Below, piece by piece: positions 5,995 to 44,984 of a DNA stretch of 64,000 nt. Position 1 is the first letter of the stretch. Each line of letters begins with the position of its first letter. The stretch spans positions 2,930-66,929 of the forward strand of contig JAOUMD010000001.1 in NCBI GenBank assembly GCA_029881675.1, in the 5' to 3' direction. The notes under the pieces were generated by a model, which was not told the DNA's origin, did not search any database, and was given only the letters and a program-made list of their open reading frames with translations. Position numbers and translations under genes: made by a program. The stretch is from Minisyncoccota bacterium (GTDB lineage Bacteria > Patescibacteriota > Microgenomatia > UBA1400 > PJMF01).

Positions 5995-6044
5995 AAAAAA
6001 ACCTCCTATGTACTTAAGAGGAGGTAACTATTATTTATTTTGTC

Positions 6045-6142
6045 TTACGACCACATCTTTCCCTCTTAAGTGAATTGGGCACCGTGTCCTTGCCAGAGGC
6101 TCGGTTGCCGGGTGAATTGCTTCACCACTCTTGATGTATATA
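6045..6142 (-). promoter_or_regulatory. SAM-I-family (S-box) riboswitch aptamer in the metK 5' leader. The expression platform continues to about 5995, a CCUCCU...AGGAGG hairpin plus U7 that sequesters the SD immediately before the AUG.
   Basis: Minus-strand RNA reads 'UACAUCAAGAGUGGUGAAGCAAUUCACCCGGCAACCGAGCCUCUGGCAAGGACACGGUGCCCAAUUCACUUAAGAGGGAAAGAUGUGG'. It matches the SAM-I core 'AUCAAGAG.GGUG...CCCGGCAACC...GGUGCCAAUUCC...GAAAGAUG' with P1 closing CAUC/GAUG. P2 is shortened (GGUGAA-GCAA-UUCACC), reminiscent of SAM-I/IV variants. Confidence 0.7.
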
Positions 6143-13104: not shown

Positions 13105-13634
13105 ATATTCTCTTCCAAATCCATATTTCTATCAATTAACTCTCTAATAATAGCTGCTTTAGTCTTATTGTATTTCTTGCTTACTGATTCTAAGTAATCA
13201 TCAATTCTTTGGCTAAGTGGTAAGTTCAATCTTACCTTCAGCTGATATTCCTCTAGTTTTTGTAAATCAAAGTTTTTACTAACCTCTGATTCAATAGATA
13301 GGGGAGTGTGGAGTAGTAGATAAGAAATTTCTGATTCTGTCAGGTAACCTCTACCAGCAATATCGAGTAGAGAATTAGCTTCTTCAATATATCTAATCCC
13401 ACGGTGATTAATTAATATCTCAATTAAAACTAAAATTGTTTTTCTATCTTTAGGAGTTCTTTTATCATTTTGCCAACGAGAAAGCTCACTATTACTAATA
13501 GTGATACCTGATTTGTAGAATTGATTGGAAAGCGCGTTTAGAGTCCTGAAGCCGGACTTCATTCTAAATAATTTAAATAGTTGACCAAAAGTATGTTTAT
13601 TATTAATTTGCGTCATAAGTATAAAACTACCCAC
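13101..13634 (-). CDS. Putative HTH transcriptional regulator (paralog of 26657..27148)
   Basis: 'FGQLFKLFRMKSGFRTLNALSNQF...SNSELSRWQNDKRTPKDRKTILVLIEIL' aligns with 'FGTLLKRYRKRAGFKTLASFADAL...SESILSRWQKGSRLPSDRKVYIIILRVF' of the other copy. The pattern looks like an XRE-like HTH. Confidence 0.5.
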   Translation of the reverse strand: MGSFILMTQINNKHTFGQLFKLFRMKSGFRTLNALSNQFYKSGITISNSELSRWQNDKRTPKDRKTILVLIEILINHRGIRYIEEANSLLDIAGRGYLTESEISYLLLHTPLSIESEVSKNFDLQKLEEYQLKVRLNLPLSQRIDDYLESVSKKYNKTKAAIIRELIDRNMDLEENI

Positions 13635-26021: not shown

Positions 26022-26660
26022 ATGAATAAACAAATAAATATAATCTTTGACTTTGATTCAACCTTAGTAACTATAGAAGGTATTGATGAGCTAGCTAAAT
26101 TAAAAAACAAAGAGCAAGAAGTAATAAAACTAACTAATTATGCTATGAGTGGAAAGGTTAACTTAGAAGAAGCCTTTATTAAAAGATTAGAAATAATAAA
26201 ACCAAATAAAAATGACCTTAATGTAATCTCTCAACTATATAGAGACAACATTACCAATGGAGCAAAAGAGGTAATTGATAATTTACATGACAAAGCTAAT
26301 CTCTTTATTGTTAGTGGGGGATACAAATGCTCTATGCTTCAAACCACTGATTACTTAAATATAAAAAAAGAAAATGTTTTTGCCAATCAGTTATTGTTTG
26401 ATAAAGAAGATAACTATCAATGCTTAAACGAAGAGATTCCATTATGGAAAAATAATGGTAAAGAAATAATAGTTAAACAAATACAAAAAGAAAATCCATA
26501 CAAAACTATTTTTATCGGTGATGGATACAGTGACTATGAAACTTCTAAGTGTGTTAACCAATTTATTTGCTTTGCAGGCGTAGCAAAGAGAGAAGATGTA
26601 ATGAGAAAATCAAAGAGAGTAATATATAAGTTAAGTGAGCTAAGAAAATTTTTAGATTAA
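26022..26660 (+). CDS. HAD-superfamily hydrolase, phosphoserine-phosphatase-like (subfamily IB)
   Basis: Motif I 'IIFDFDSTLV' (classic SerB-type DFDSTL) and motif IV 'GDGYSD'. Confidence 0.6.
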   Translation: MNKQINIIFDFDSTLVTIEGIDELAKLKNKEQEVIKLTNYAMSGKVNLEEAFIKRLEIIKPNKNDLNVISQLYRDNITNGAKEVIDNLHDKANLFIVSGGYKCSMLQTTDYLNIKKENVFANQLLFDKEDNYQCLNEEIPLWKNNGKEIIVKQIQKENPYKTIFIGDGYSDYETSKCVNQFICFAGVAKREDVMRKSKRVIYKLSELRKFLD

Positions 26661-27148
26661 TTAGAATTAATATCGTTATCAATTAACCCTCTAAATACCT
26701 CTGCTTTACTTGTCTCATACTGTCCCGATACCCAGTCTAAGTATTTACTCATATTTTTTGGTAAAACTAAAGATATCTTAACTAGTTTCTCTTCTATCTC
26801 ATCATTGTCATGATCTTCTTCATATAAGTTCATGTCTAATTCGAGATCACCTTCTCCTAATAATTCCTTAAGTTCTATAGAAGATAAGAAACCTTTATTT
26901 GCTAAAGATAATAATTGGTTTGCTTGATAAATATTCTTAATTACTCCATAAGCAATGAATACTCTTAAGATTATAATATATACTTTTCTGTCACTAGGTA
27001 ATCTAGATCCTTTTTGCCAACGGGATAATATACTCTCACTATAAACAAGTCCTTCATCAGCAAGTGCATCAGCAAAGCTTGCTAAGGTTTTAAAACCTGC
27101 TCTTTTTCTATACCTTTTTAATAAAGTGCCAAAAGTGATTTGTTGCAT
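26657..27148 (-). CDS. Putative HTH transcriptional regulator (paralog of 13101..13634)
   Basis: See the paralog alignment under 13101..13634. The C-terminal acidic tail differs. Confidence 0.5.
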   Translation of the reverse strand: MQQITFGTLLKRYRKRAGFKTLASFADALADEGLVYSESILSRWQKGSRLPSDRKVYIIILRVFIAYGVIKNIYQANQLLSLANKGFLSSIELKELLGEGDLELDMNLYEEDHDNDEIEEKLVKISLVLPKNMSKYLDWVSGQYETSKAEVFRGLIDNDINSN

Positions 27149-31238: not shown

Positions 31239-31862
31239 ATGACAAACAAAAATAATGGAATAATAATAGCAATCGTTGGACCACACTATAGTGGAAAATC
31301 TACTTTATCTCAGAAATTATTTCATGAGAGTAACTTCTCAACAGTAGAAGAAAAATGGCTTGAAGATCCATTTACACAATTTCGCAAAAAAGGTGACTAC
31401 TTAAAATCACAAATATGGTTTCTTACAGAAACTATGAAAACAATGCTTGAAGCCATTAACATGAAAAATAATGGTTCTAAAATTGTCTTAGATACTTTTG
31501 TAAATACTACCCGAGCATTTTGTAGATCTAAACTTTCTACGCAAGATTTTAAAATATTTAACATTGTTTTTGACAATATTGTCAAGGATTTTCCTTTACC
31601 TGATCTAATAATCTATCTCACAGGATCAGTAGATGCTCTTAAACAAAGAAGTATTATTAGAGCCAAATCGGGAACTGGTCCAGATAGTGATAAAAACGTT
31701 TCTCTTGAATGGATAAAAAAATCTATTGATGCAAATGAAGAAGAATTTGGAAACTGGACCAAAACACCGATAATTAAGATTGATGTTTCAAATAAAGATG
31801 TAATAAATAACAAATTAGATTACAACGAACTTTTACAAAAGGTCATTAACACCCAGAACTAA
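31239..31862 (+). CDS. P-loop nucleoside/nucleotide kinase, deoxynucleoside-kinase-like
   Basis: Walker A 'IIAIVGPHYSGKSTLSQKL' at the N-terminus. About 207 aa with dNK/dNMP-kinase-like spacing. Specificity unknown. Confidence 0.45.
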   Translation: MTNKNNGIIIAIVGPHYSGKSTLSQKLFHESNFSTVEEKWLEDPFTQFRKKGDYLKSQIWFLTETMKTMLEAINMKNNGSKIVLDTFVNTTRAFCRSKLSTQDFKIFNIVFDNIVKDFPLPDLIIYLTGSVDALKQRSIIRAKSGTGPDSDKNVSLEWIKKSIDANEEEFGNWTKTPIIKIDVSNKDVINNKLDYNELLQKVINTQN

Positions 31863-31996: not shown

Positions 31997-34312
31997 ATGG
32001 TCAAAAATAATTCATTACCAGATGAAATAATCTACAACATTAGATTATTAAATTCTATTAGAATCATTATGGTAAAAGAAATACAATCCTTTGCCCCTCA
32101 GGCAGAACAACTAAGACAAAGACGAGACAGTTGGTTAAGAATGTTTGATAAAGACTTAAGATCTAAAATGTCTGAGCGACAAGGTTTTAAATCAGAATTA
32201 CCCTTAACTGCTCATTTCTTAATTGACGGATCAGTAAAAATTCCCTTTGCAGAGTTTTCTCAACTGCCTGACTGGATGAAAAAATTCTTCCTTGACGATA
32301 GAGTTTCTCGTCCACCATCAGTCTCAGTTTTTTCAGATTACAATGATAGTTTAGAACATCCAGAAGTTTTAGCGTCAGTTCAAAATAACACTAAAGATAT
32401 AGTTCTAAGAGGGGGTCGTTTTTGGGATTTTGATGGAAGTAAAGCAAACTATGGACCAGACGGGGCAGAAGCAGTTGAACTACTCTTTGAAAACATTAAC
32501 GGAAATATGTCAATAATAAATCAATTAATTAATTTTGAACCTCAAAATGAATTTGAATGGTTGGCAAGAATTGCAGCATGGGAATATATTAGAAATGATT
32601 TTTGTGCTGTCTATTATTCTTTAAAATGTAGAATTGCGAAAGTTGATGATGCTTCTGCACATGAATTGGGTGTTATTGATCACGCACTTGAATATATTTC
32701 AAATAGATACTTTGACAGTATCCTCATGTTTCAAACAGATCCCCATAGAGGTTCTAGAGAATTAAGTGAGATAGTGAATAATGCAGAAGAAATAAAATCT
32801 ACTTTAAGTGAGTTTGTTTCTGATCCTCAATTTGAAGGGCGAGATCTACTCAGATCTCATAGAGAAGTTAACAACCCACTATCATTAATGAATGCTTTTA
32901 GATTAATTTATAAATCTGACAGTGATTCTAATGAACTTAGTTATACTGATGAAATTAAAAATAATGATGCCATTTTAGCTCCTCTTTATGGGGGAATTGA
33001 TTTGGCCTATGCTTTCAGATATGCTCTCGGTGATGGGCAAAGATATATTGAACAACTTCTAGATACTAAGCTATGTGATGATAAAAAATTTGTTAAAGTT
33101 TTACCTGTACTCTCAAAACTAGGAAGTAAGGGTGTTGTTAGATCCCAATTATCTAAGATTGATTCAGTAATTCCAAATTTAAATTCAGATGAGTCTGTTA
33201 ATGGTAGAGAGAAGGGCTGGTTGGCTAAAGAAATTCCAGATGCCAGAAGTATTCTAGTTATTGATGACTCTCTAGCGACAGGTGGATCAGCGGTAGTATT
33301 CAAAGATTGGGTCTCTGAAGCACTTGGACATGATGTTGAAATGGAACTTAGAGTAATTTATGCCAACCTAAGATGGTCAAAACACCAATGTCCAATAGAA
33401 GATTTAATGGCAGCAGATCCTATTACTCAAACTCCAATTACTAGAAGCATGAAAAAGGCTCTATATCCACTTGGTAGTAGATTTATGCCAGATGCAGTAA
33501 GCAATCATCTACAACAAAAAACAAAACGGACTTTTTCAAGTTTAACTGATGCAATGCCAGAGATAACTAAAATGCATCAGAAAAAAACTATTGAAGCTGT
33601 TGGCTTTGATCTTGATGACACACTAATACTACGTACTGTTGATGCTAAAGCAAGAAGAATCATGATTAACCATTCTATACTTAGACTTCTAAATCAGAAC
33701 GGGATTACTATAGATCCCGATCTATATGCAGAACGTAGTTATAAAATTCTTAATAGGGAGAGGGGATTATCTCAAACTAATCCCAACCATCCTATTGATA
33801 TGGATTCTTGTAATAAAGAAATTTTAATTGACCTAGGTATAACAGATAAAGCTCAATTAAAAATCTTAGCCCCACTAATGACTCTTGAAGAACTTAAAGT
33901 AGATCAAAAAATTGTGATTCCAGCTCCTGGAGCAAGAGAGATATTAGAAGAACTAATTAGCTTAGGAATAGACTTTGGAATATTTTCAAATTCTCACTAT
34001 CTTGTCCAACACATTGAACAAATTCTTATTGCTGCTGGGATTGATGATCTACTAATAGATAGAACTCTTCTAACCTCAGCTAATCCAGGTACCCCTCAAA
34101 AACCTGATGGACAAGCAATAAAAAATCTTGCTAAAGAAATGGGTACCATAGTTCAAGACCTTGCATATGTTGGTAATTCATTCCAAACAGATGTGGTTGG
34201 TTCGACAAAGAGTGGCGGAGTTTCAATATATATACCCCAACCAGTAGATGCTATAAGTAGAGCAGAAATAACTAAAATAAAAAATTGGAAAGAACAATTA
34301 GCCAATGTCTAA
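31997..34312 (+). CDS. Multidomain protein: unknown N-terminal domain (about 400 aa), then a type I PRTase domain, then a C-terminal HAD phosphatase domain
   Basis: PRTase motif 'ILVIDDSLATGGSAVVF' near aa 420. HAD motif I 'AVGFDLDDTLI', motif II 'GIFSNS', and a motif III/IV region 'K...VGNSFQTDVVG'. Confidence 0.55.
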   Translation: MVKNNSLPDEIIYNIRLLNSIRIIMVKEIQSFAPQAEQLRQRRDSWLRMFDKDLRSKMSERQGFKSELPLTAHFLIDGSVKIPFAEFSQLPDWMKKFFLDDRVSRPPSVSVFSDYNDSLEHPEVLASVQNNTKDIVLRGGRFWDFDGSKANYGPDGAEAVELLFENINGNMSIINQLINFEPQNEFEWLARIAAWEYIRNDFCAVYYSLKCRIAKVDDASAHELGVIDHALEYISNRYFDSILMFQTDPHRGSRELSEIVNNAEEIKSTLSEFVSDPQFEGRDLLRSHREVNNPLSLMNAFRLIYKSDSDSNELSYTDEIKNNDAILAPLYGGIDLAYAFRYALGDGQRYIEQLLDTKLCDDKKFVKVLPVLSKLGSKGVVRSQLSKIDSVIPNLNSDESVNGREKGWLAKEIPDARSILVIDDSLATGGSAVVFKDWVSEALGHDVEMELRVIYANLRWSKHQCPIEDLMAADPITQTPITRSMKKALYPLGSRFMPDAVSNHLQQKTKRTFSSLTDAMPEITKMHQKKTIEAVGFDLDDTLILRTVDAKARRIMINHSILRLLNQNGITIDPDLYAERSYKILNRERGLSQTNPNHPIDMDSCNKEILIDLGITDKAQLKILAPLMTLEELKVDQKIVIPAPGAREILEELISLGIDFGIFSNSHYLVQHIEQILIAAGIDDLLIDRTLLTSANPGTPQKPDGQAIKNLAKEMGTIVQDLAYVGNSFQTDVVGSTKSGGVSIYIPQPVDAISRAEITKIKNWKEQLANV

Positions 34313-35153
34313 AATACCTATTATTATCGATACTGATGTCTTTGGTGACCCAGATGACATACTAGCCATTACCTACTTACTTGCAAACCAAGACAAGATA
34401 GAAATTAAACTTATCGTAACTGCTGATGAACATAAAGGGATGAGAGCAGCTTGGTTACAAAAAATATTCTCAAAAGCAGGGCTTGATGTTCCTATAGTGG
34501 CTGGCGTTGACCTCGGTAACACCAGACTTTTTCTTTTTGATGAAATTAACACTAGCAATGTAAATTTCAATTATCTTGAAGCAATCAAAGAAGTTATAGA
34601 ATCTAATGATTCAACTACATATCTTTGTATGGCTCCTCAATCTAACTTAGCTGCCTTTATTTCTAAATATCCTCACCTTAAAAATAAAATAGTTGTAAAA
34701 GGTATGGGTGCAGTTTTAGATATAGACTTAGGCAGAATAGAACACAATGTGAAATATGACATTGAAGCATTTAAAACAGTAGCTAGTCAGATGAAACCAC
34801 AACTCTTATTAGCTGATCATACTTGGCATGACAGTATGCAATTCCACAAAGAAACTGAGATGTATAAGATGATAGATAAAAGCACTAATCCTCTTGCTCT
34901 TGCAATAATAAAAAATGCCAATGCTTTTTACGATACCCTTTATCCTCAATCAAGATTTCATGATCCAATCTTAGCTAGTATTCTTCTTGATGACTTTCTA
35001 GAATTTACTCCTGACAAACTAATTGTTGAACCAAATGGATTTACAAGAAGACCTAAAAAAGGTGAAAAGGGGTGTGAAGTTACGGTAAGTAAAAGTGTTG
35101 ATTATGATAACTTATACACTCATTTCTTTAATAGTCTAAAACAATATCTCTAG
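34305..35153 (+). CDS. Inosine-uridine-preferring nucleoside hydrolase family protein
   Basis: N-terminal 'KIPIIIDTDVFGDPDDILAITYLL' is the IU-nucleoside-hydrolase aspartate cluster (D-x-D-x-x-x-D-D). 8-nt overlap with the upstream gene. Confidence 0.75.
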   Translation: MSKIPIIIDTDVFGDPDDILAITYLLANQDKIEIKLIVTADEHKGMRAAWLQKIFSKAGLDVPIVAGVDLGNTRLFLFDEINTSNVNFNYLEAIKEVIESNDSTTYLCMAPQSNLAAFISKYPHLKNKIVVKGMGAVLDIDLGRIEHNVKYDIEAFKTVASQMKPQLLLADHTWHDSMQFHKETEMYKMIDKSTNPLALAIIKNANAFYDTLYPQSRFHDPILASILLDDFLEFTPDKLIVEPNGFTRRPKKGEKGCEVTVSKSVDYDNLYTHFFNSLKQYL

Positions 35154-35168
35154 CTACAAAATATATTT

Positions 35169-35678
35169 ATGAAAATTAACCTATCAAAACACATAGAAAC
35201 TGTAATTAAAGCTCATGTAGATCACCCCAAAGAAGAAATCAATAAATATCGTTTCTTTGATAAAAAGACACCGTATGTTGTCCATCCAATATGGTGTGCT
35301 ACTACTATATTAACAGAGCCAAAACTTGATTTTGACCTAAGACAAAAAGGAGCATTATCACTTCTATACCACGATGTTTTAGAAGATACTTTAGCTCCAT
35401 TACCAGAAGATTTGCCAAGTGAAATTAAAGAATGGATTAGAGACATGACCTTTGATGGGGGCTTTGAAGAAGAACAGGTTAAACTATTCACAAAGCCAAA
35501 AGAAGTTTTACTCTTTAAGCTTTATGATAAAACCTCAAACTTACTGGATGCCACTTGGATGGATAAAGAGTTATATAAAACATATTTTGACTTTACTCAA
35601 AAGTTATCAAAGAAAGTAACCAAACATTACGGAGAGTTAAATATTACTAAGATACTTGGTACCTTAAAATATAGATAG
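35169..35678 (+). CDS. HD-domain phosphohydrolase (YfbR-like 5'-deoxynucleotidase candidate)
   Basis: 'VHPIWCA' (the His) and 'LLYHDVLEDT' (the HD motif). 169 aa. Confidence 0.55.
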   Translation: MKINLSKHIETVIKAHVDHPKEEINKYRFFDKKTPYVVHPIWCATTILTEPKLDFDLRQKGALSLLYHDVLEDTLAPLPEDLPSEIKEWIRDMTFDGGFEEEQVKLFTKPKEVLLFKLYDKTSNLLDATWMDKELYKTYFDFTQKLSKKVTKHYGELNITKILGTLKYR

Positions 35679-35681
35679 TAT

Positions 35682-36248
35682 TTAATAATACTTATCTTCC
35701 TTAGCCATCTCTTCTACAAGTAATGATCTAATAATATCTGCCTTTGATTTGTTCATCTTTTGAGACTTCTCGTTAAGAAAGTTAACTAAGTCTGAAGAAA
35801 GCATCATATTAAACCTTTGGTCCTTTTCTTTTGAAATAAAGTTAATTGCATTGCTAATAATCTCTCTTAAGTTACTTTGGTTATAACCTAAGACAATTAA
35901 CTTATCTGATTTAATATCTTTGAGGATATGAGGTGTAGCTGAGTCTTTATGCAAGGCAATTACAAACTTATTATGTAATAGAGCCATACTTATTTCTTGA
36001 CCTATTCCTATTGAAGAATGAGTAACTTCAACAACAATCACATCTGCATCTTTCTTTTGTTTAGAGATCATTTCTTGTTCTAATAGATTTTCCTTCTCAC
36101 TCTTATTAAAATACTGATCTTTATTATTAAATCTTCTTTCAAAAAGGTTTACATAACCTAATTCCTCAAAGTAGTCACAAATTAAATTACAATCTTTTTT
36201 TAACTCACTGGTCATCTTGCTGATGGAGACAGAGAAGTAGATTTTCAT
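35682..36248 (-). CDS. DNPH1(Rcl)/nucleoside-2-deoxyribosyltransferase-like domain fused to a C-terminal ribbon-helix-helix domain (paralog A; catalytic Glu retained)
   Basis: 'MKIYFSVS' N-terminus. 'DVIVVEVTHSSIGIGQEISMALLHNKFVIAL' aligns to Rcl 'VVVAEVTQPSLGVGYELGRAVALGKPILCLF', with Glu at the nucleophile position. C-terminal 'QRFNMMLSSDLVNFLNEKSQKMNKSKADIIRSLLVEEM' is a beta-strand / helix / turn / helix RHH pattern. Confidence 0.6.
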   Translation of the reverse strand: MKIYFSVSISKMTSELKKDCNLICDYFEELGYVNLFERRFNNKDQYFNKSEKENLLEQEMISKQKKDADVIVVEVTHSSIGIGQEISMALLHNKFVIALHKDSATPHILKDIKSDKLIVLGYNQSNLREIISNAINFISKEKDQRFNMMLSSDLVNFLNEKSQKMNKSKADIIRSLLVEEMAKEDKYY

Positions 36249-36811
36249 TAGTTATTCTGCTTTTTCATATCCATTCTAATTAACTCTCTTATGTGCGAAG
36301 ACTTAGGCTTTCTATTTTTCTTCGATAGTTTATTTAAATAATTAATCAACTCAGGTTCTAACATTAAATTAAATCTCTTTAACTGCCTCCCTTTGGCATA
36401 TTCAAGTCCTTCTTCAACGACATCCTCCAAATTTGATCCATCATATTCTAAATATATAAAGTTCTCATCATCCATACCTTTTAAAAACACTGATTCATAT
36501 CCTATTTCATGAAATGCAAGAATAGTCTTATTTTGTTCTAAAGCCATAGTTACCTCATGACCAATATTAATTGTTGATGGAAATGACATTTCTGCTATTA
36601 CTAGATCACATTTCCCAATCCACTTAACAACTTTTTTATAATACTTTGTTGAAGTATCCAGAGTTTTGTTTCTAATATCATCCATTGAGACATCTAAAAT
36701 ATGGTCTGCTTTAATAGTATGACCTAGATCTTCAGCTCGTTTTACAATCCTCTCAAAGAAGTCTTTATGGTCTTTTCTGAAATAAATAGAACCAGTGAAA
36801 TATATATTCAT
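36248..36811 (-). CDS. DNPH1/NDT-like + RHH fusion (paralog B; catalytic Glu retained)
   Basis: 'MNIYFTGSIY', 'DLVIAEMSFPSTINIGHEVTMAL', and C-terminal 'KRFNLMLEPELINYLNKLSKKNRKPKSSHIRELIRMDM'. 4-nt overlaps with both neighbours. Confidence 0.6.
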   Translation of the reverse strand: MNIYFTGSIYFRKDHKDFFERIVKRAEDLGHTIKADHILDVSMDDIRNKTLDTSTKYYKKVVKWIGKCDLVIAEMSFPSTINIGHEVTMALEQNKTILAFHEIGYESVFLKGMDDENFIYLEYDGSNLEDVVEEGLEYAKGRQLKRFNLMLEPELINYLNKLSKKNRKPKSSHIRELIRMDMKKQNN

Positions 36812-37374
36812 TTATTTAACTCAACTTTCATCAACTCATTAATAGCTTTTCGAATTATTTGAGCTTTAGACATTTTATTCTTTTTTGAGTAATCGTTAAG
36901 GAAATTTATCATTTGAGGAGAAAGCATTAAGTTAAAACGCTTATCTTGATTTCCAGAAAAATAATCAAATGCATCTGAAATAACATCATCAATACTTTCA
37001 TATGTATATTCTGATACGACTAGATTAGGGTCATGAATTCCTGAGAGAAAAAATGGAGCATTTCCTTTTGAATATAAACACAAAGTTGGTTTTGATAACT
37101 CAATACCTTTATTAATTAGGTAGCCCATTGATAAACTATGAATAGATACTTCTACAACTATTACATAAGCTTTTTTCAAGTTAGTAAGTGTATTCTGATA
37201 GTGCTGATCAATCTCTTCTAATGAATATTCGTAAAAACTATCTGGATCATTATTTATAACTAAATCTGAAGTATGTTTACCATAGGCAGATAGTGACTTA
37301 TATATCTTATTTAAGTTATCAGATTGTTCTTTTATTCTTAAGGAACGAGGGGAGCCGGTGAAGAATATTTTCAC
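36808..37374 (-). CDS. DNPH1/NDT-like + RHH fusion (paralog C; nucleophile Glu replaced by Leu, N-terminal Tyr replaced by Phe)
   Basis: 'MKIFFTGSP', 'YVIVVEVSIHSLSMGYLINKGIELSKPTLCLY', and C-terminal 'KRFNLMLSPQMINFLNDYSKKNKMSKAQIIRKAINELM'. Confidence 0.55.
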   Translation of the reverse strand: MKIFFTGSPRSLRIKEQSDNLNKIYKSLSAYGKHTSDLVINNDPDSFYEYSLEEIDQHYQNTLTNLKKAYVIVVEVSIHSLSMGYLINKGIELSKPTLCLYSKGNAPFFLSGIHDPNLVVSEYTYESIDDVISDAFDYFSGNQDKRFNLMLSPQMINFLNDYSKKNKMSKAQIIRKAINELMKVELNK

Positions 37375-37931
37375 AAATCTTTCCCCTTCATATCTTCTTT
37401 AATCAAACCTCTTATATAAACAGCTTTTGGAGTTTTTGTTTTCTTTGATAACTTATTCAAATACAGATTCATCTTCTTACTAAGCATCATGTTATATCTA
37501 ACATCATTCTCAAAAAACAAATTATCTAATGCTAAATCAATTACTTTCTTATAATTTTTTTCTGAATACTCCCACAATTGAAACCTCTCATCATCTATAC
37601 CTTCAATAAAGAGTTGCCTATTTCCTTTTGTATATAGACAGATTACATTCTTCTCATGCTTTAAAGCATGTAATATCTGAAAACCAATAGTAATACTAGG
37701 AGTAGAGGTCTCTAAAATAACGACATCACTCTTCTTCATTAACGAATCAGCTTGATCATAAACATGCTTAATGTGAAAGGAAGTAGGTTTATAAAAATCT
37801 TCAAAGTTTTCTTTAGAAAGGTAATCTAAAACAATTTTATGTCCTATGTCTTGAAGGTAAGACTGGACTTTTGTTACCAAGTTGATCTGTTTCTTATCTG
37901 ATCTTCCAGATAAGTTTAGATATATATTCAT
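37371..37931 (-). CDS. DNPH1/NDT-like + RHH fusion (paralog D; Glu replaced by Gln)
   Basis: 'MNIYLNLSG', 'DVVILETSTPSITIGFQILHALKHEKNVICLY', and C-terminal 'VRYNMMLSKKMNLYLNKLSKKTKTPKAVYIRGLIKEDM'. First gene of the four-gene minus-strand operon. Confidence 0.55.
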   Translation of the reverse strand: MNIYLNLSGRSDKKQINLVTKVQSYLQDIGHKIVLDYLSKENFEDFYKPTSFHIKHVYDQADSLMKKSDVVILETSTPSITIGFQILHALKHEKNVICLYTKGNRQLFIEGIDDERFQLWEYSEKNYKKVIDLALDNLFFENDVRYNMMLSKKMNLYLNKLSKKTKTPKAVYIRGLIKEDMKGKDL

Positions 37932-38073
37932 ACTTGGTATTAGATTCTATCATACAAAAGTGTAATAGATACGTCTTTTAAATATTCCATTCTCAAGAAT
38001 AGATGATAAAATTTATAGAATTTGGTGTAAAATATACACAGCCAATAAATATCAGTTATTTAGAAAGACGGCA

Positions 38074-38643
38074 ATGAAAATTTTCTTGAGCGCTTCAATC
38101 TACGGTAAACAACATCTTGAGGATAGTTGTAAGAAGATTGTTGAACTAACTAAGAAAAGTGGTAATACTATTGTTGCTGATCATATTTTAAGCACTACAA
38201 GTGAAGACATGCTTAAATGGCAAAAAGATAAAGATATTGAATTTCATAACTTTGTTATGAATGGTGTAAAGAACTCTGATGCAGTTTTTGCAGAAATTTC
38301 ACACCCAAGTACTTCAGTAGGTTACTTAATTGCTATTGCAGCCCAAACAGGTAAGCCAGTAGTTTGTTTTTATAATGGGGATAAAAAACCTCACCTCTTT
38401 AATACTCTAGAACAACAAAATGATAAGTTTGTAGTGGTTGAATATCATAAGCCTGAAGATTTAGACAAACTTGTCCCAGAAATGATTGAGTTTATTCATG
38501 AAGGACAAGATACTAGATTTAACTTCTTTGTTACTCCAAAACATATTAACTATATGAACTGGATTGCTAAAAATAAACGAATTCCTAGGTCTGTTTTCTT
38601 GAGGAGATTGATTGAAGAGGAGATGAAGAAGAATGAATTTTGA
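38074..38643 (+). CDS. DNPH1/NDT-like + RHH fusion (paralog E; Glu replaced by Leu, Tyr replaced by Phe)
   Basis: 'MKIFLSASIYGKQHLEDSCKKIVELTKKSGNTIVADHIL' aligns to the Rcl N-terminus 'LYFCGSIRGGRED..LY.RIV..L...G.VLTEHV'. Also 'AVFAEISHPSTSVGYLIAIAAQTGKPVVCFY' and C-terminal 'TRFNFFVTPKHINYMNWIAKNKRIPRSVFLRRLIEEEM'. Confidence 0.6.
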   Translation: MKIFLSASIYGKQHLEDSCKKIVELTKKSGNTIVADHILSTTSEDMLKWQKDKDIEFHNFVMNGVKNSDAVFAEISHPSTSVGYLIAIAAQTGKPVVCFYNGDKKPHLFNTLEQQNDKFVVVEYHKPEDLDKLVPEMIEFIHEGQDTRFNFFVTPKHINYMNWIAKNKRIPRSVFLRRLIEEEMKKNEF

Positions 38644-39067
38644 AAATAAAAATTTTAATAGAATAAATGTAGCTGCACTTATAGTTGATGAAAATAGTCG
38701 TTTTTTAATTTGTAAAAGAAGTAAAAATAAAAAATTTCTTCCAGGAATTTGGCACTTCCCAGGAGGAAAGGTAGAAAAAGGTGAATCTAATATTCAAGCT
38801 TTACAAAGAGAACTAATTGAAGAAATTAATATTAAGAATATATCAGAATTTATAGATCTTAAGATATCACATGAATATATTGTAAAAGAAGAGAAACATA
38901 AAACAGAATTTTACTTTTGTAAAACTACAGATACGCCAAATATAAATAATGAAGAAAATGAAGCCTTAAAATTTATTTTACCAGTTGAAGTAAAAGATTA
39001 TATTAATGATAGAAGTACAACAATTCTAATTAATGCTGTTCAGAAAGTCTTAAATGAAAACCAATAA
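38633..39067 (+). CDS. Nudix hydrolase
   Basis: Nudix box 'GGKVEKGESNIQALQRELIEEINI' (G-x5-E-x7-R-E-U-x-E-E-x-(G to N)-U). 144 aa. Overlaps paralog E by 11 nt. Confidence 0.75.
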   Translation: MNFENKNFNRINVAALIVDENSRFLICKRSKNKKFLPGIWHFPGGKVEKGESNIQALQRELIEEINIKNISEFIDLKISHEYIVKEEKHKTEFYFCKTTDTPNINNEENEALKFILPVEVKDYINDRSTTILINAVQKVLNENQ

Positions 39068-39956
39068 TGTTCAGTACCATAAACAGCTATCAAATGCTTT
39101 TTTTGATAAAAACGGGAAATCATCAGCGCTCCCTACAATAATTAAGACTATAGAAGAACAACTCAAAATAAAAAAAACTATCAACTTTTTAGATATAGGA
39201 TGTAATAGAGGCACTCTTTATTCTATTTTAAAAATTATAATATATGAAAATAAATGGGAGGATAGGATAAATTTTTATGGTATAGATTATGACAAAAAAT
39301 CAATAGAATTGTGTTCAAAAAGACATAATGATGTTATTTTTTACAATATTAACCTAAATAAAATTAATATAAAAATCAAAGATCATTTTGACATAATTAC
39401 ATCTATTAACACTCTCCATGAAGTCTTTTCTGGATACATATTAAAACAAAGTGGTAAAAACGATCTATCATTCAAAAATGCAAAGACTCATACCGAAGCA
39501 GTTTTAACAGAATTAATAAAATTACTTAATAAAAATTCTTCATTTATTATTTATGATGGATTGGATGTTGAAACTTTTCAATATGAAAATATTGTTAGGT
39601 TTTCTTTTGTAAATGCTAAAGATAAAGACTTATTTAATATATTTGTTAAAGAATACGAACCTATTCCAATTAACGTTAAAGAGATAAATTTAAATCTTTT
39701 TGAGACTTCTAAAAGTAATCTACTAAGATTAATCAGTACATTCAAATATATTAACACTGATATTTGGGACATTGAACGAAAACAAACATATCATTTTTTT
39801 TCTATAACTGACTTTAAAAATACCGCTTATAATAATAATCTTAAAATAGAAACTATTAAAAGTTTTTCTAATGACATAGAACTTTGGAAATCAAAATTCA
39901 TATTAGAAGACTCTGATTGGCCTGAAAAATCAGTATTAATAAAGTATAATAATTAA
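39054..39956 (+). CDS. Class I SAM-dependent methyltransferase-like protein
   Basis: Motif I-like 'INFLDIGCNRGTL', 'FYGIDYDKKSIELC', and a post-II 'FDIITSINTLHEV'. 300 aa. Overlaps the Nudix gene by 14 nt. Substrate unknown. Confidence 0.45.
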   Translation: MKTNNVQYHKQLSNAFFDKNGKSSALPTIIKTIEEQLKIKKTINFLDIGCNRGTLYSILKIIIYENKWEDRINFYGIDYDKKSIELCSKRHNDVIFYNINLNKINIKIKDHFDIITSINTLHEVFSGYILKQSGKNDLSFKNAKTHTEAVLTELIKLLNKNSSFIIYDGLDVETFQYENIVRFSFVNAKDKDLFNIFVKEYEPIPINVKEINLNLFETSKSNLLRLISTFKYINTDIWDIERKQTYHFFSITDFKNTAYNNNLKIETIKSFSNDIELWKSKFILEDSDWPEKSVLIKYNN

Positions 39957-39958
39957 AT

Positions 39959-40528
39959 ATGAAAATTCACTTTATCGGAGATCTTAATGGAGACATTGCA
40001 CAATACGAAAGTATTATAAACCTAATTGAAAAATTAGGTCATAGAATCGTCACAAAACATTTTATTAAAAGAAGTTTCGAAGAACTTAAAAATGAAACCG
40101 ATAAAGATGCCGCTGATTATTCAAAAAAAATGAAAAAGTGGATTAATGGATCTGATGCTGTGATAGTAGAAATTACAAAACCAGGGCTAGGCTCGGGTTA
40201 TGAAATATCAACTGCACTAGCGTTAAGTAAACCAGTTATTGTTTTATTTAAAGAAAATCAAAAAAATAGCCCTCATGTGTTAAAAGGTATTGAATCTGAT
40301 AAGTTACAAGTAATGAATTACAACATGGATAACCTTTCTGATTTACTAAACGACGCACTAGACTACGCCTCATCCCAACAAGACACCCGCTTCAACTTCT
40401 TTGTAGCCCCTAAGCACATTAACTTCTTAGATTGGGTAGCAAAGAATAAGAAGATACCTAGATCTGTTTTCCTTAGAAGACTTATCGAAAGAGAAATAGC
40501 TAATGATGAACAGTATTCTAATCAGTAA
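39959..40528 (+). CDS. DNPH1/NDT-like + RHH fusion (paralog F; Glu retained, N-terminal Tyr replaced by His)
   Basis: 'MKIHFIGDL', 'AVIVEITKPGLGSGYEISTALALSKPVIVLF' (closest of the six to the Rcl core), and a C-terminal 'TRFNFFVAPKHINFLDWVAKNKKIPRSVFLRRLIEREI' that is nearly identical to paralog E's C-terminus. Confidence 0.6.
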   Translation: MKIHFIGDLNGDIAQYESIINLIEKLGHRIVTKHFIKRSFEELKNETDKDAADYSKKMKKWINGSDAVIVEITKPGLGSGYEISTALALSKPVIVLFKENQKNSPHVLKGIESDKLQVMNYNMDNLSDLLNDALDYASSQQDTRFNFFVAPKHINFLDWVAKNKKIPRSVFLRRLIEREIANDEQYSNQ

Positions 40529-40548: not shown

Positions 40549-40577
40549 TAACCCCTCTTATTAGAGGGGTTTTTTAA
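40549..40577 (+). terminator. Rho-independent terminator
   Basis: AACCCCUCU-UAUU-AGAGGGGUU hairpin followed by UUUUUU. Confidence 0.7.
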
Positions 40578-40826: not shown

Positions 40827-42488
40827 ATGCCTATTAAAGAAACCCTTCGCTTAGCGGAAGTAAGAACTTATACAAACTTAGTTTTAATTCTAGCTATGCT
40901 CGCAATATTCATTATTAGCATCAACCCTGTTGAAGCTGATGATACTGAAAGTATTTGGCAATCTCTTAGTGAAAGAGGTCAAATCGAACTTACTTTAGAT
41001 GATTCCTACTTAGAATCAAACAATATGTTTGGTGATGTAGAACAACAAGTAAACCCAGAACAAGTTACTACTACTCTTAATATAAACATTCCAAATACTG
41101 CAGTAGTCAGAAGACTCTCAGATGGTCAAGAAAATGAATTCTTCCGTAGTGGAGAATTTGATGTCATTGGATGGTTTAACTCAGATGGTACAAGTTTTGA
41201 AGGATTTGGTGATGGAATTGTATTAGTCATAGATGGTGTAGCTGGTGGCTATGGTGTATTTGCATCAGAAGTTACTGAAACTGATGGCAGTGGTGTCACA
41301 GATGCAGAAGCTGCTACTACTCAACCATATGGGGAAGATGATGAAGGAGATATAGTTCCAATTGAACCTGATCCTGATACTATTACAACTCCTGAAGCAA
41401 TTGTTAACAATCCAACTATTAATATTACAGATAATATTAACGTAAGAAACACTAGTGGTCTTAACACTGGTAGAACTAATAACAACTTCCCAAGAGGTGA
41501 AGCTACTGTTATTGGTATATTTGAAGCTGATGCAGATGACATTTTTGGCCGTACTGCAATAGGTACTTGGTACGTTGTGGTTGCAGAAAGTGGTACTGAA
41601 GGTGCTGTCTTTGCTAATTCATTTAACAATGTAACTGACGTTCAAGAAGCTGCTTTACCTGTCTACACAATTACCAACAGCAATTTATCTGCCCCTGTTG
41701 AGGTAGAACCTACTGATGTACCTGAAGTAGAACCAGAAGCCGCTCCAGAACCAGATGATGAGACAGTTGTGACTCCAGAGCCTATTGTTACACCAGAAAG
41801 TAATTTAGGGTTTCCTGAGTTACCTAGTAGTATGGAGGTTTCATATTATGCATACGGTGATAGAAATGATGATGTAGTTACCACAGAAACATTAAATATT
41901 AACTCTGAAAGTTTCTTACCATTCCCATTAGGAATGATTGAGCAAGGAGCTTCAGAGCAAACTGATAGAGTAGGTTGGTGGGGAGAGCCTAATCCAGAAC
42001 GAAATAGATGGCAAAAAATTCCTTTAGCTGGAATTGTTGTAAATGTTGAAACTATCACAGAAGGATCTCGTCAATTTAATTTCATACACCTATTAACTCA
42101 AACTCCAGATGGTCAAAATGTAATTATTCAAATCAGATTACATGATCACACAAGGTTTTCACCAGTGAACGATGAATTACAAAACATGGCCTCTGATGAT
42201 GTGATGGCTATGCTTTGGGAAAGTAATGGAGTTATTTATGATGATTTGATTCAAGCTCCAACAAGAAACATAACCCCAGGTGACTATATAATTATTGATA
42301 TTGAAAATGTCGGAGAACAATCAAATACTCCAAATGGAACAAATTGGATGGTTAATCAAAGCAATAACAATATTCCCGATGGTACTCCTACAGCAGTTTT
42401 TGAATCAATTGATGATGGAGAGGTTGATAGAGAAATTCCTGTTATACAAGTCTTTGGAGGAAATAGAATTCTTTTTAATCAAGACTAA
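40827..42488 (+). CDS. Secreted or membrane-anchored acidic surface protein (hypothetical)
   Basis: N-terminal hydrophobic segment 'LVLILAMLAIFIISINPVEADD', then a highly acidic low-complexity protein rich in E, D, T and P ('EPTDVPEVEPEAAPEPDDETVVTPEPIVTPE'). Confidence 0.55.
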   Translation: MPIKETLRLAEVRTYTNLVLILAMLAIFIISINPVEADDTESIWQSLSERGQIELTLDDSYLESNNMFGDVEQQVNPEQVTTTLNINIPNTAVVRRLSDGQENEFFRSGEFDVIGWFNSDGTSFEGFGDGIVLVIDGVAGGYGVFASEVTETDGSGVTDAEAATTQPYGEDDEGDIVPIEPDPDTITTPEAIVNNPTINITDNINVRNTSGLNTGRTNNNFPRGEATVIGIFEADADDIFGRTAIGTWYVVVAESGTEGAVFANSFNNVTDVQEAALPVYTITNSNLSAPVEVEPTDVPEVEPEAAPEPDDETVVTPEPIVTPESNLGFPELPSSMEVSYYAYGDRNDDVVTTETLNINSESFLPFPLGMIEQGASEQTDRVGWWGEPNPERNRWQKIPLAGIVVNVETITEGSRQFNFIHLLTQTPDGQNVIIQIRLHDHTRFSPVNDELQNMASDDVMAMLWESNGVIYDDLIQAPTRNITPGDYIIIDIENVGEQSNTPNGTNWMVNQSNNNIPDGTPTAVFESIDDGEVDREIPVIQVFGGNRILFNQD

Positions 42489-42559: not shown

Positions 42560-43210
42560 TTGATTAAAAAACTGTCTACAATGAAATATATGAATTGGAA
42601 AATATTAGTTGGAGGTAGCTTTTTTATAATCATTATCTTTTCTGTGTTCCTTGGATTTCAATTTATCCAAAACAGAGGTAATTTATTAAATATACCTGAA
42701 GGTAATCAAGTTTCTACATTCAAACCTCTCCTTACTAAAACTCCAGAAGAACGTCGCTTAGCTGCTAAGAGTGAGGCAAACACTAGCAGACAGCTTGTTC
42801 GAGGGTATGTTTTTAGATATAGCCAAGAGAACAATACTTTTGGAATAGCTGTTGAAGCTAAGCAGCCTAATGGAATTATGGGAGTTATAGGGGTAGTAGA
42901 TATAGTGATAGATCCAGACAGGATTAATGAATTTTTATGTTGGCCAGAATTTAATAAAACTCCTGCAGGCATAGATGTAGACATGAAAAAAACATTTATT
43001 TCTATGGGTGCTGATAATACACTATACCTAAAAGGAGAATCAAAGAAACAAATTGAAGCAGTTGGAACTCAACTTAATAATTCTCCCTATGTTTTTGCTT
43101 TCTTAGCTACAGCAGTAGAAGATTTAATCCCTTCTATAGAAAACTCAAAAGACCTTGATGCTCAATATGTTGATCAATTATCTATCTTAGGATGCAATGA
43201 AACTAACTAA
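42560..43210 (+). CDS. N-terminally membrane-anchored hypothetical protein
   Basis: TM helix 'ILVGGSFFIIIIFSVFLGFQFI', then a 180-aa soluble domain. Overlaps the next gene by 14 nt. Confidence 0.55.
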   Translation: MIKKLSTMKYMNWKILVGGSFFIIIIFSVFLGFQFIQNRGNLLNIPEGNQVSTFKPLLTKTPEERRLAAKSEANTSRQLVRGYVFRYSQENNTFGIAVEAKQPNGIMGVIGVVDIVIDPDRINEFLCWPEFNKTPAGIDVDMKKTFISMGADNTLYLKGESKKQIEAVGTQLNNSPYVFAFLATAVEDLIPSIENSKDLDAQYVDQLSILGCNETN

Positions 43211-44984
43211 AATATTTAAAACACTATTCACTTTAATATTAATAGCTTCTGCTTTTTTTATTTTTAAAGGTGATACCTTAGCTGCCTGTGGTGATGCTGC
43301 TTTTTGTGATGCTGCTCCAGGAGAGTGTTCAACTACTTCTAACGGTGGCCAAACAATTGTTATTGGATCATTTCAAACTGTGACAAGAGAATGTAGTGAG
43401 CTACAAAATTGTGATTACTGTACTTCTCAAGATTTACAAGATAACCCCTACTGTCAACCGGTCTGTACAACAGTGACAGAATGTCAAGATTCAGAAGGAA
43501 ATGATTTGCCAAGTGATACCGTTGTTACTACCACTTGTACCGACACCATCTGGGAAACTTGCTGTACTCCTGGGACACCTGCCGGAACTTGTGGAGACAA
43601 CATCTGTGAAGGAACTGAAACTTGTAGCTCTTGTGAATCTGATTGTGGAGCCTGTCTAGTACAGTGGTGTGGAGATGGCTCATGTAATGCTGGAGAAACT
43701 TGTGACAGTTGCGCTGCTGACTGTGGATCATGTAATTTCTGTGGAAATAATTCATGTGATGGTGGTGAAGATTGTAATAATTGTGCTGCTGACTGTGGTG
43801 CCTGTGCAGGTGGAAGTTGTGGAGATGGTTCATGTAACAATGGAGAATGGTGTGGAGACTGTCCAGGTGACTGTGGAACCTGTACCTCTTGTGGTGATGG
43901 TTCATGTAATGGTGGTGAAACTTGTGGAACATGCTCTACCGACTGTGGAGCTTGTGTAAGCTGTGGTGACGGTTCATGTAATGGTAGTGAGAACTGTGGT
44001 ACTTGTGCTACAGACTGTGGTAGCTGTGCTGACCCATCGTTCTGTGGAGATACAACCTGTGATGCCTTTGAGACTTGTGATACCTGTGAATCTGACTGTG
44101 GTGCCTGTGCGGAAAATGCAGCATGGTTCCAAATTAGTGCTGGACATGTCGGTAGTGCAAATGCAGGAGATGCTTCAGTAGCTATTCAAAGTGATATTAC
44201 CGATACAGCAGATTGTGTTGCTCCTGCTTGTGTTAGATCTTTATCTAGAACTGACTTAAATAATACTGCTTTAACTGACGGCTTTGCTGTTGTAGGTAGC
44301 GGAACAATTGATGCTAATGGTGGAATCAGTGAGCGTGATCAGAACACATATTCATCAAATACAACTAAGTCTAGATACCAAGAAAACTACGAATTCTTTT
44401 ATAGAAATTCTGGTTTAGCTGCAAATCCAACTGGTGACTTTACTGGATCAGAAACTGATGCTCAAAAACCAACATATAATGCTAATGATATTGTTTACTT
44501 CCAAAGTGGAGATCTCACTATTCAATCACCATGGAGTGTTGCTTCAGGTGAAACTTATGTAGTCTTTGTTGATGGTAATTTAACACTCACTGACGGAGAT
44601 GGTGCAAGTGACCAATTAATTGATGTAGCAGATGGTGGTTTCTTAGCCTTTATCGTCAGCGGAAATATAATAGTTAATGAACAACTTGGTAACTCAACCC
44701 TAGCCAGTACAACTTCAAATGTAGAAGGTGTCTATATTGCTGATGGTACGCTAACTATTGAGTCTAGAGGTACTGCAGGTGGAGGAGATGATCGCTTTGT
44801 CGGAGAAGGTGTATTTGTCGGCTGGACTGGAGTTAACTTAAATCGTGACTTTAGTGATGGTAGTACTAGATCTTTAGAAAATAATGATAAAGCTGTAGAA
44901 CTATTTGTCTACCGCCCAGATCTACTGGTTAATATGCCAGACATCATGCTTGTCCCAATTAGGATCTGGCAAGAAACTAACTAG
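43197..44984 (+). CDS. Secreted cysteine-rich-repeat protein with a C-terminal beta-helix/adhesin-like region
   Basis: Signal/TM 'LFTLILIASAFFIF', then about eight tandem copies of a roughly 22-aa unit 'CGDGSCN.GE.C..C..DCG.C' (for example CGDGSCNAGETCDSCAADCGSC; CGDGSCNGGETCGTCSTDCGAC). The C-terminus has repetitive beta-strand-like 'GDLTIQS...GNLTLTDGDG...VSGNIIVN' segments. Confidence 0.75.
   Translation: MKLTKIFKTLFTLILIASAFFIFKGDTLAACGDAAFCDAAPGECSTTSNGGQTIVIGSFQTVTRECSELQNCDYCTSQDLQDNPYCQPVCTTVTECQDSEGNDLPSDTVVTTTCTDTIWETCCTPGTPAGTCGDNICEGTETCSSCESDCGACLVQWCGDGSCNAGETCDSCAADCGSCNFCGNNSCDGGEDCNNCAADCGACAGGSCGDGSCNNGEWCGDCPGDCGTCTSCGDGSCNGGETCGTCSTDCGACVSCGDGSCNGSENCGTCATDCGSCADPSFCGDTTCDAFETCDTCESDCGACAENAAWFQISAGHVGSANAGDASVAIQSDITDTADCVAPACVRSLSRTDLNNTALTDGFAVVGSGTIDANGGISERDQNTYSSNTTKSRYQENYEFFYRNSGLAANPTGDFTGSETDAQKPTYNANDIVYFQSGDLTIQSPWSVASGETYVVFVDGNLTLTDGDGASDQLIDVADGGFLAFIVSGNIIVNEQLGNSTLASTTSNVEGVYIADGTLTIESRGTAGGGDDRFVGEGVFVGWTGVNLNRDFSDGSTRSLENNDKAVELFVYRPDLLVNMPDIMLVPIRIWQETN
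43560..44110 (+). repeat. Coding tandem repeat, period about 66 bp (22 codons), about eight copies, inside the Cys-rich protein gene
   Basis: Repeating 'tgtgg(a/t)ga(t/c)gg(c/t)tcatgtaa...gactgtgg...tgt' units. The His-rich overlapping ORFs on both strands in this interval are alternate-frame artefacts of the repeat. Confidence 0.8.

Follow-up and report, generated by a model that had tools for sequence, protein, structure and literature searches.

A DNPH1-like domain joined to a ribbon-helix-helix domain in a protein family of Microgenomates

Introduction

Positions 35682 to 40528 of a 64,000-nt stretch of DNA from a Minisyncoccota bacterium (contig JAOUMD010000001.1; the whole stretch is called the window here) contain six similar open reading frames (ORFs). 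An earlier reading of the letters alone (the sequence-only reading) saw in each product an N-terminal domain resembling DNPH1/Rcl, an enzyme acting on deoxynucleoside monophosphates (dNMPs), followed by a ribbon-helix-helix (RHH) DNA-binding domain. Why does one locus carry six such proteins, half of them with a degenerate active site, and are they enzymes, regulators or parts of an anti-phage system? The DNPH1-RHH fusion is a sizeable unnamed family restricted to Microgenomates. We propose with moderate confidence that the six proteins are nucleotide-responsive RHH DNA-binding regulators of the 'trigger enzyme' kind, with the paralogs that lack the nucleophile Glu acting as sensors only. In trigger enzymes and enzyme-derived one-component regulators, a metabolic enzyme fold or its inactive derivative senses the ligand for a regulator that binds DNA or RNA and controls the same pathway.

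Results

Six divergent paralogs in two operons

The six ORFs of 186-189 aa are present with the positions and strands that the sequence-only reading gave them, and their products can be aligned end to end at 23-31% pairwise identity. Paralogs A (35682-36248), B (36248-36811), C (36808-37374, GTG start) and D (37371-37931) are on the minus strand, while E (38074-38643) and F (39959-40528) are on the plus strand. Deposited proteins from one 211,241-bp 'Candidatus Pacebacteria bacterium' contig match A, D, and F exactly or contain them (D is identical to P0001 and F to P0003). Paralog A has an ortholog with 61% identity in L069, one of the family loci from related genomes (L001, L002, L004, and so on; L001 is a close relative). 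Because of the full-length alignment at 23-31% and the deposited identical proteins, we regard the six ORFs as a real, old paralog family. The same divergence and deposited proteins, together with the orthologs in other genomes, rule out chance ORFs as well as the assembly collapse of a single gene that the sequence-only reading had kept in mind.

The genes are arranged as two divergent operons, D-C-B-A, headed by D, and E-Nudix-methyltransferase-F. This arrangement had been proposed before, but the 4-nt ATGA overlaps that went with it occur only at the junction of C and B. D and C are joined by GTGA, and B and A by TAATG with a 1-nt overlap. On the plus strand, E overlaps the Nudix gene by 11 nt, the Nudix gene overlaps the methyltransferase gene by 14 nt, and F follows after a gap of 2 nt. 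The Nudix hydrolase (38633-39067, plus strand) resembles MutT and pyrimidine dNTP pyrophosphatases (PF00293, 5e-18), and the class-I S-adenosylmethionine (SAM) methyltransferase (39054-39956, plus strand) belongs to a divergent family of small-molecule type. A strong bidirectional intrinsic-terminator hairpin (40550-40571; 9-bp stem with 5 GC pairs, followed by a T-run) closes this operon. The G+C content is 26-29% across the paralog array (window positions 36000-40000) and about 33% for the window.

The N-terminal domain is homologous to DNPH1/Rcl

The N-terminal domain (residues 1 to about 140) is Rossmannoid. A family profile of this domain, made from 123 sequences and searched against PDB sequences, matched Rcl at 3.2e-23 and DNPH1 at 1e-20 (positions 3-136), and paralog B alone matched DNPH1 at 1.4e-8 (phmmer). 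When the AlphaFold2 model of B (pLDDT 87.7) was compared with the PDB using Foldseek, the top 50 matches were all DNPH1/Rcl, with E-values down to 7.5e-9 and target TM scores of 0.75-0.87. In Pfam, only B exceeded the gathering cutoff of PF05014 (33.4 against 28.8 bits); F (27.8 bits) and E (22.2 bits) were below it, and A, C, and D had no match. Paralog A scores 192 bits against the family hidden Markov model. The domain was assigned to DNPH1 despite these weak single-sequence Pfam results because the family-level profile and the structure matches are decisive, and it is a true DNPH1/Rcl homolog. The classical nucleoside 2-deoxyribosyltransferases (NDTs) were rejected as the closest family, since the profile gave E=0.03-0.4 for NDT versus 3e-23 for Rcl/DNPH1. 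The similarity to DNPH1/Rcl reported in the sequence-only reading was thus borne out by the profile and by Foldseek, which agree that DNPH1 is nearer than classical NDT.

In DNPH1, Glu104 is the nucleophile, Asp80 is the general acid of the Y-D-E triad, Tyr24 is catalytic, and the 5'-phosphate is bound by Ser98 and by Ser128' from the partner subunit (PMC10603095). We derived the residue equivalences from an alignment of B with DNPH1, took the residue roles from the same paper, and counted residues in 134 family members. At the Glu104 position, A, B, and F have Glu, C and E have Leu, and D has Gln, exactly as the sequence-only reading had it, and 92 of the 134 members have Glu there. The Tyr24 equivalent is Tyr in A, B, and D (and in 73 of the 92 Glu-class members), His in F, and Phe in C and E, the two paralogs that had been described as lacking the N-terminal Tyr. 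Most Glu-bearing members (64/92) have a His beside the Glu (G-H-E). Both the Tyr and this His are lost along with the Glu, and Tyr to Phe accompanies Glu to Leu. Written as the residue at the Tyr24 position followed by the motif around Glu104, B has the canonical family motif Y / G-H-E, A has Y / G-Q-E, and F has H / G-Y-E, while the degenerate pockets are F / G-Y-L in C and E and Y / G-F-Q in D. In C, the Asp88 position is Tyr. The Ser98 equivalent is kept in 128 of the 134 members (it is Gly in F), that of Glu93 in 132, and that of Gly102 in 133, and all three are kept in Glu-less members as well.

The Asp80 position, aligned with the conserved Trp83 and Asp88 equivalents as anchors, is L, V, M, I, A, or T in essentially all 134 members; it is hydrophobic in all six paralogs and flanked by Lys/Arg. 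The Ser128 equivalent is Pro in 105 of 134. Since Asp80 is missing, the Y-D-E triad of DNPH1 is incomplete throughout the family. As judged from the alignment, the members are DNPH1 homologs that would fall short of the full catalytic definition of DNPH1. The sequence-only reading had suggested a division into catalytic and ligand-binding-only paralogs. The split between Glu-type and Glu-less forms is real and recurrent, and selection maintains the degenerate copies, but the triad is incomplete even in A, B, and F, and F has in addition His for Tyr and Gly for the phosphate Ser.

The C-terminal domain is predicted to be a ribbon-helix-helix

The C-terminal domain covers residues about 145-187. 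The AlphaFold2 model of the isolated domain (pLDDT 91) has an extended segment (1-14) and two helices of 14 and 17 residues (15-28 and 32-48). Its top 50 Foldseek matches were all RHH DNA-binding proteins, with Arc first (TM 0.76-0.84, 22-24% identity), and further structural matches included ParD, YiiF, CopA, CopG, NikR, AmrZ, and PutA. A profile of the domain matched the CopG-family protein 7by2 at E=0.0066 and then YiiF. Among 50 isolated C-domains scanned against Pfam with matches counted at E<=1, RHH_3 matched 21 (best 8.9e-5) and RHH_1 matched 8 (best 2e-4); the single-sequence RHH scores were below the cutoff (for RHH_1, 19.6 bits at best versus 20.5). On the strength of the model and its structural matches, the domain is predicted to be an RHH, in line with the earlier assignment.

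The RHH is more conserved than the N-terminal domain (58% versus 32% mean pairwise identity), and it is kept in the degenerate paralog C. Its strand reads R-F-N-F-F-[IV]-S (RFNMML in A), with Arg146 invariant (134/134) and Asn148 in 126 of 134. The F-N of the strand aligns with Phe10-Asn11 of Arc, and therefore the Arg and Asn would be at base-reading positions.

A search with this RHH subtype alone gave 855 representative clusters. Among the best 149, 134 have the DNPH1-like domain and the rest are mostly fragments. The idea that the subtype is joined to many other domains was dropped, as no such case was seen among these 149 representatives. The sole clear second architecture is an XRE-like helix-turn-helix (HTH) followed by the RHH. 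The window encodes two such proteins on the minus strand, one of 163 aa (26657-27148; hhalign probability 96%) and one of 177 aa (13101-13634; 91%) that adjoins a phosphoribosyltransferase (PRTase)-like gene, and they are 35% identical to each other. In L001 and L069, an ortholog of the 26657-27148 gene directly follows the paralog array. Having two DNA-binding modules is odd for a protein this small, and the HTH-RHH proteins possibly pair through the RHH with the DNPH1-like proteins as heterodimers.

Distribution, copy number, and selection

In a collection of 5.8 billion protein sequences, the family profile matched 377 proteins. Among the 120 matches listed, nearly all are 183-201 aa long, most are annotated as 'hypothetical protein', and the named sources are Pacebacteria, Microgenomates, Beckwithbacteria, and related groups. 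When one genome per species was scanned, 188 stretches were confirmed, and most of them come from Shapiro-, Collier-, Woese-, Chisholm-, and Beckwithbacteria. No family relatives were found in the 2.9 M viral contigs of IMG/VR or the 50,697 phage genomes of INPHARED. The sequence-only reading held the fusion to be undescribed, and we found no description in the literature that we searched; a mention in the 2015 Aravind-lab survey of nucleotide-centric systems is possible. We rate as new the combination of a DNPH1-type domain with an RHH, while the class of enzyme-derived one-component regulators is already known.

To describe copy number, we used 86 loci and counted copies within 7 kb. At least two copies are present in 33 of them (2-4 full copies), and the six copies in the window are the maximum; the array is the extreme of a common pattern and not unique in kind. 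Where a locus has a single copy, that copy is Glu-type in 46 of 53 cases, and Glu-less forms are mainly extra tandem or divergent copies. A module consisting of a degenerate F-Y-L copy, a SAM methyltransferase, and a Glu-type copy, in this order, recurs in L002, L006, L013, L017, L020, L021, L025, and L069, and it corresponds to E-(Nudix)-methyltransferase-F in the window. Comparison of the Glu-less paralogs with their L001 orthologs gave ratios of nonsynonymous to synonymous substitution rates (dN/dS) of 0.05 (E), 0.09 (D), and 0.17 (C), with dS at about 1.05-1.7 (about 1.05 for E and D). By this measure, the degenerate copies are functional and under strong purifying selection rather than decaying. 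The equivalents of the phosphate Ser, Glu93, and Gly102 are kept in them as well.

Variable enzymes beside a constant family gene

Typically, a variable enzyme gene on the same strand is directly upstream of the family gene. The upstream partner is a SAM methyltransferase in 22 cases, a radical-SAM protein in 15 (plus 7 divergent), a P-loop kinase of one of two families in 15, a PfkB kinase in 6, a thymidine kinase (TK) in 4, and a dCMP deaminase in 1. The median gaps to the family gene are 2-6 nt for the P-loop kinases, PfkB, and the methyltransferases, and 16 nt for TK. The partner methyltransferases make up a single divergent class-I family of small-molecule type, to which phosphoethanolamine N-methyltransferases are the nearest relatives with a solved structure, and this family accompanies the paralogs in about 25 of the 86 loci. 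Some of these cassettes include a Nudix gene, which follows E in the window and precedes the radical-SAM gene in both L018 and L034, and genes for HAD phosphatases are often downstream of family genes.

Many loci are located beside dnaX-ybaB-recR, cysS, or rplJ, which is a stable chromosomal context. The slot between the E and F orthologs is occupied by the Nudix and methyltransferase genes in the window (38633-39956), by a dCMP deaminase gene in L001 (1996-2499), and by an unrelated methyltransferase gene in L069 (243-1073). In the syntenic recR...cysS locus, the gene directly upstream of the family member varies too. This looks like a cassette-style, hotspot-like turnover of slot genes beside a constant family gene.

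At least eight loci have, one after the other, genes for a PfkB kinase and a bona fide prokaryotic viperin (pVip) and then the family gene. The viperins of L004 (7113-7955) and L064 (6098-6979) match the PADLOC model 'viperins associated with kinases' over their full length with 189 and 184 bits. The L004 viperin scores 172 bits with NCBIfam NF038283 (cutoff 180); the next model is the viperin exception model TIGR04278 with 97 bits, and the best non-viperin family has 96 bits. Further loci have more distant viperin-like radical-SAM genes, some with a preceding Nudix gene. Where a viperin is present, the family gene has an extended -10 box of its own in front of it. A kinase-viperin linkage has been described with nucleoside monophosphate (NMP) kinases (CMPK2-like) as the partners, and a DNPH1-RHH partner is absent from that account (bioRxiv 10.1101/2023.09.13.557418). 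About 5 kb upstream of the PfkB-pVip-family cassette, L004 also has an AbiEii/DUF6922 pair of the abortive-infection toxin-antitoxin type (982-1879).

In the window, PADLOC models gave no match for the six paralogs except a 13.7-bit TIR-like one for E (E=0.01), and there is no viperin. The window Nudix matches the PADLOC candidate PDC-S07. The anti-phage role that the sequence-only reading offered as one of two possibilities therefore fared differently at two levels: the window lends it no support, with no PADLOC match for the paralogs, no viperin, and a family that is absent from the phage and viral collections, but the kinase-pVip pair before the family gene in at least eight related loci speaks for it.

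The divergent control region

The divergent control region between D and E (37932-38073) contains two extended -10 boxes, TGATAGAAT at 37944-37952 on the minus strand, about 12 nt before the ATG of D, and TGATAAAAT at 38004-38012 on the plus strand. Just after the plus-strand box there is a perfect palindrome, GTGTA-N5-TACAC (38025-38039). It is within a 62-nt non-coding block before E (37994-38059) that is about 94% identical to L001 despite the dS of about 1.05. The palindrome is a reasonable candidate for a local operator.

Several other elements were considered. The window, L001, and L069 have inverted repeats in their divergent regions that were rejected as operators, as they are the extended -10 boxes (TGATAAAAT / TGATAGAAT) facing each operon, and a mild enrichment of 'ATTTTATC' upstream of family operons is due to the same kind of box. 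A 13-nt direct repeat, GTGTAAnAnATAC, was not supported as a regulon motif, since the window has 3 matches with at most one mismatch versus 1.7 expected, and 83 of 85 loci lack the repeat. No sign of a riboswitch or structured leader was seen before E (no Rfam match, fold z-score -1.4).

Discussion

A nucleotide-responsive regulator

We infer from sequence the DNA binding, ligand, catalysis, regulation, and oligomeric state of the family. In the scheme that we favor, a dimer would bind DNA through its paired RHH strands near the promoters of nucleotide-processing genes, and this binding would be altered when the DNPH1-like pocket is occupied by a (deoxy)nucleoside monophosphate or a modified form of it. 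The Glu-type copies (A, B, and F; Y...G-H-E would be the ancestral type) perhaps cleave the ligand or trap it covalently as well. The Glu-less copies (C, D, and E) would be sensor-only pseudoenzymes, which possibly form heterodimers with other copies.

Among the closest known systems, DNPH1/Rcl (NDT/'DrHyd' superfamily, PF05014) has the same fold and clear homology over about 135 residues, and Glu-type members keep the equivalents of Tyr24, Ser28, Glu55/His56 (as Asp-His), Glu93, Ser98, Gly102, and Glu104. Unlike DNPH1, the family has no Asp80, mostly Pro for Ser128', the His of G-H-E, and about 30% Glu-less members. DNPH1 is an animal protein, whereas this family is bacterial, and all of its members have a C-terminal RHH, which DNPH1, MilB/BcmB, and NDTs lack. 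The RHH has the strand-helix-helix topology and element sizes of Arc, CopG, and MetJ, but it is C-terminal to a 140-residue nucleotide domain and its strand is almost invariant across paralogs. With PutA, NikR, NadR, BirA, PyrR, and Bacillus subtilis PurR, the likeness is one of logic only ('works like'), as the family is known from sequence and models. PutA (RHH and proline dehydrogenase) and NikR (RHH and ligand domain) also use an RHH; theirs is N-terminal, while that of the DNPH1-RHH family is C-terminal. PyrR and PurR have active and inactive enzyme folds in regulators of nucleotide pathways. To our knowledge, no trigger-enzyme regulator uses the DNPH1/NDT fold. Like described pVip systems, at least eight related loci have a kinase and a pVip directly before the family member, but the described kinase is of the NMP type (CMPK2-like) and the one here is PfkB-type, and the window has no viperin.

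Several observations weigh against a regulatory role. Family genes are usually the last in their operon, an atypical place for an autoregulator. Upstream of 95 family operons, no k-mer is enriched beyond the -10 boxes, and a search for an operator common to the family found none. GTGTA-N5-TACAC was rejected as a family operator because it occurs only in the window, in the close relative L001, and at one unrelated site, and no shared palindrome was seen upstream of the orthologous PfkB-pVip cassettes. The RHH strand is near-invariant over six paralogs and many lineages, which is unusual if the regulators have indeed come to differ in their targets. In the full-length monomer model the strand does not form, as one would expect if the protein were an obligate dimer. 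Pfam scores for RHH and NDT are mostly under the gathering cutoffs. Finally, catalysis is doubtful even in the Glu-type copies, given a hydrophobic residue for Asp80 and mostly Pro for Ser128' in the alignment.

Alternative explanations

The proteins might instead be enzymes first. Glu-type copies would then be (deoxy)nucleotide N-glycosidases that sanitize or recycle the pool of a salvage-dependent bacterium, either clearing away aberrant dNMPs or NMPs that come from promiscuous salvage kinases or releasing bases and deoxyribose 5-phosphate, and the RHH would mainly be an oligomerization or stabilizing module or provide only simple autoregulation. DNPH1 itself is a dNMP pool sanitizer (PMC10603095). 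The predominantly Glu-type single-copy loci (46/53) co-conserve the Tyr, the Glu, and the phosphate Ser; the family-specific His beside the Glu is lost with the Glu, as a catalytic dyad would be; kinases that produce (d)NMPs (TK, PfkB, and the two P-loop families) are directly upstream in 25 cases; and Nudix, dCMP deaminase, and HAD phosphatases are classical partners in pool sanitation. We nevertheless consider this rather unlikely, since the general acid Asp80 is absent family-wide and Ser128' is mostly Pro, about 30% of the members are without the nucleophile yet under strong purifying selection, and the C-terminal domain is more conserved than the enzyme domain and keeps an Arc-like base-contact Arg, an Asn, and a basic N-terminus of helix B that an oligomerization tag would not need. 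A different enzymatic idea, which we find highly improbable, is that the RHH tethers the DNPH1-like domain to DNA as its substrate (for example a terminal nucleotide with a 5'-phosphate, or a base that is damaged or modified), or that these are nucleoid-associated proteins near the replication and repair machinery. A near-invariant RHH strand (Arg 134/134, Asn 126/134) is easier to reconcile with a common DNA feature than with diverse operators, and about 29 loci are within 3.5 kb of recR, often with dnaX-ybaB. But the pocket is of the type that binds mononucleotides, with a Ser for the 5'-phosphate, there is neither a sequence hint of base flipping nor a comparative signal for DNA as the substrate, and the linkage to recR may be plain synteny within one lineage.

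The viperin loci raise the question of a conflict system, in which the family would be the constant partner (an infection sensor or regulator, or a self-immunity enzyme) of variable antiviral nucleotide-modifying enzymes. Under attack by a phage, the slot genes (viperin and kinase, methyltransferases, Nudix, deaminase) would produce nucleotide analogues or break them down. The order PfkB-pVip-family gene in at least eight loci, with distant viperin-like genes elsewhere, fits this idea, and so does the hotspot-style change of the genes beside the family member between close relatives. Some phages make 5-hydroxymethyl pyrimidine nucleotides. DNPH1-family enzymes favor such nucleotides (PMC10603095). 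Against this, the six paralogs match no PADLOC model and the window is without a viperin, the family is absent from the 2.9 M viral contigs and the 50,697 phage genomes, the loci are at conserved positions among housekeeping genes (dnaX-ybaB-recR, cysS, rplJ), most partners (TK, deoxynucleoside kinase, PfkB, HAD, nucleoside hydrolase) are ordinary salvage enzymes, and in the viperin loci the family gene has its own promoter-like box instead of tight coupling; this explanation is unlikely. The explanations are not mutually exclusive, as by analogy a PutA-like protein could be both an enzyme and a repressor and could act on salvage or antiviral genes. The conflict idea also has a more specific version, which we regard as decidedly unlikely. 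The DNPH1-RHH protein would be the constant sensor or regulator (or self-immunity enzyme) of modular, fast-exchanging nucleotide-modifying cassettes in Microgenomates, its pocket would sense nucleotides that are specific to infection (such as dNMPs made by the phage, hydroxymethylated or otherwise, or dNMPs from genome degradation) and switch the cassette on, and the eight RHH proteins of the window could form a combinatorial heterodimer network. Viperin and its kinase would then be the one slot occupant that is already known as antiviral, and the methyltransferases, P-loop kinases, Nudix, and deaminase would be candidates for new antiviral nucleotide-modifying enzymes.

Whether as the nucleotide-responsive regulator that we favor or as a sanitizer, the family would act lineage-wide and join the DNPH1 fold to a DNA-binding module. 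DNPH1 is the human dNMP pool sanitizer and a current drug target. For Microgenomates, the family may offer a simple system for nucleotide sensing, and its catalytic-type and pseudoenzyme paralogs, both under selection, would show cleanly, in nature, how an enzyme becomes a sensor. Since some genomes link it directly to viperin, the family possibly controls or complements an antiviral nucleotide-analogue pathway, and its other variable partners suggest unknown nucleotide-modifying activities.

Other features of the window

The paralog array is in a nucleotide-salvage setting. Next to it on the plus strand are genes for a deoxynucleoside kinase (31239-31862), a PRTase-like/HAD fusion (31997-34312), an inosine-uridine nucleoside hydrolase (34305-35153), and an HD-like protein (35169-35678), and the region 24.9-40.5 kb also contains genes for a His-phosphatase, a HAD protein, GMP synthase (GuaA), and a purine-type PRTase. 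The nucleotide-scavenging island envisaged in the sequence-only reading fits these genes together with the Nudix gene. The PRTase-like/HAD fusion is an unusual protein of 771 aa, with a long unassigned N-terminal part, a weak PRTase-like stretch (about 320-445), and a C-terminal HAD phosphatase.

Two large plus-strand genes are downstream of the array. One encodes an acidic protein of 553 aa without a Pfam match (40827-42488), and the other encodes a protein of 595 aa with many Cys-rich CGDGSC-type repeats behind a hydrophobic N-terminus (43197-44984). Both are probably surface or secreted proteins. Elsewhere in the window, a SAM-I/IV riboswitch (6026-6142, minus strand; RF01725, 57 bits versus a gathering cutoff of 41.1) is directly upstream of a SAM synthetase gene (4876-5994, minus strand).

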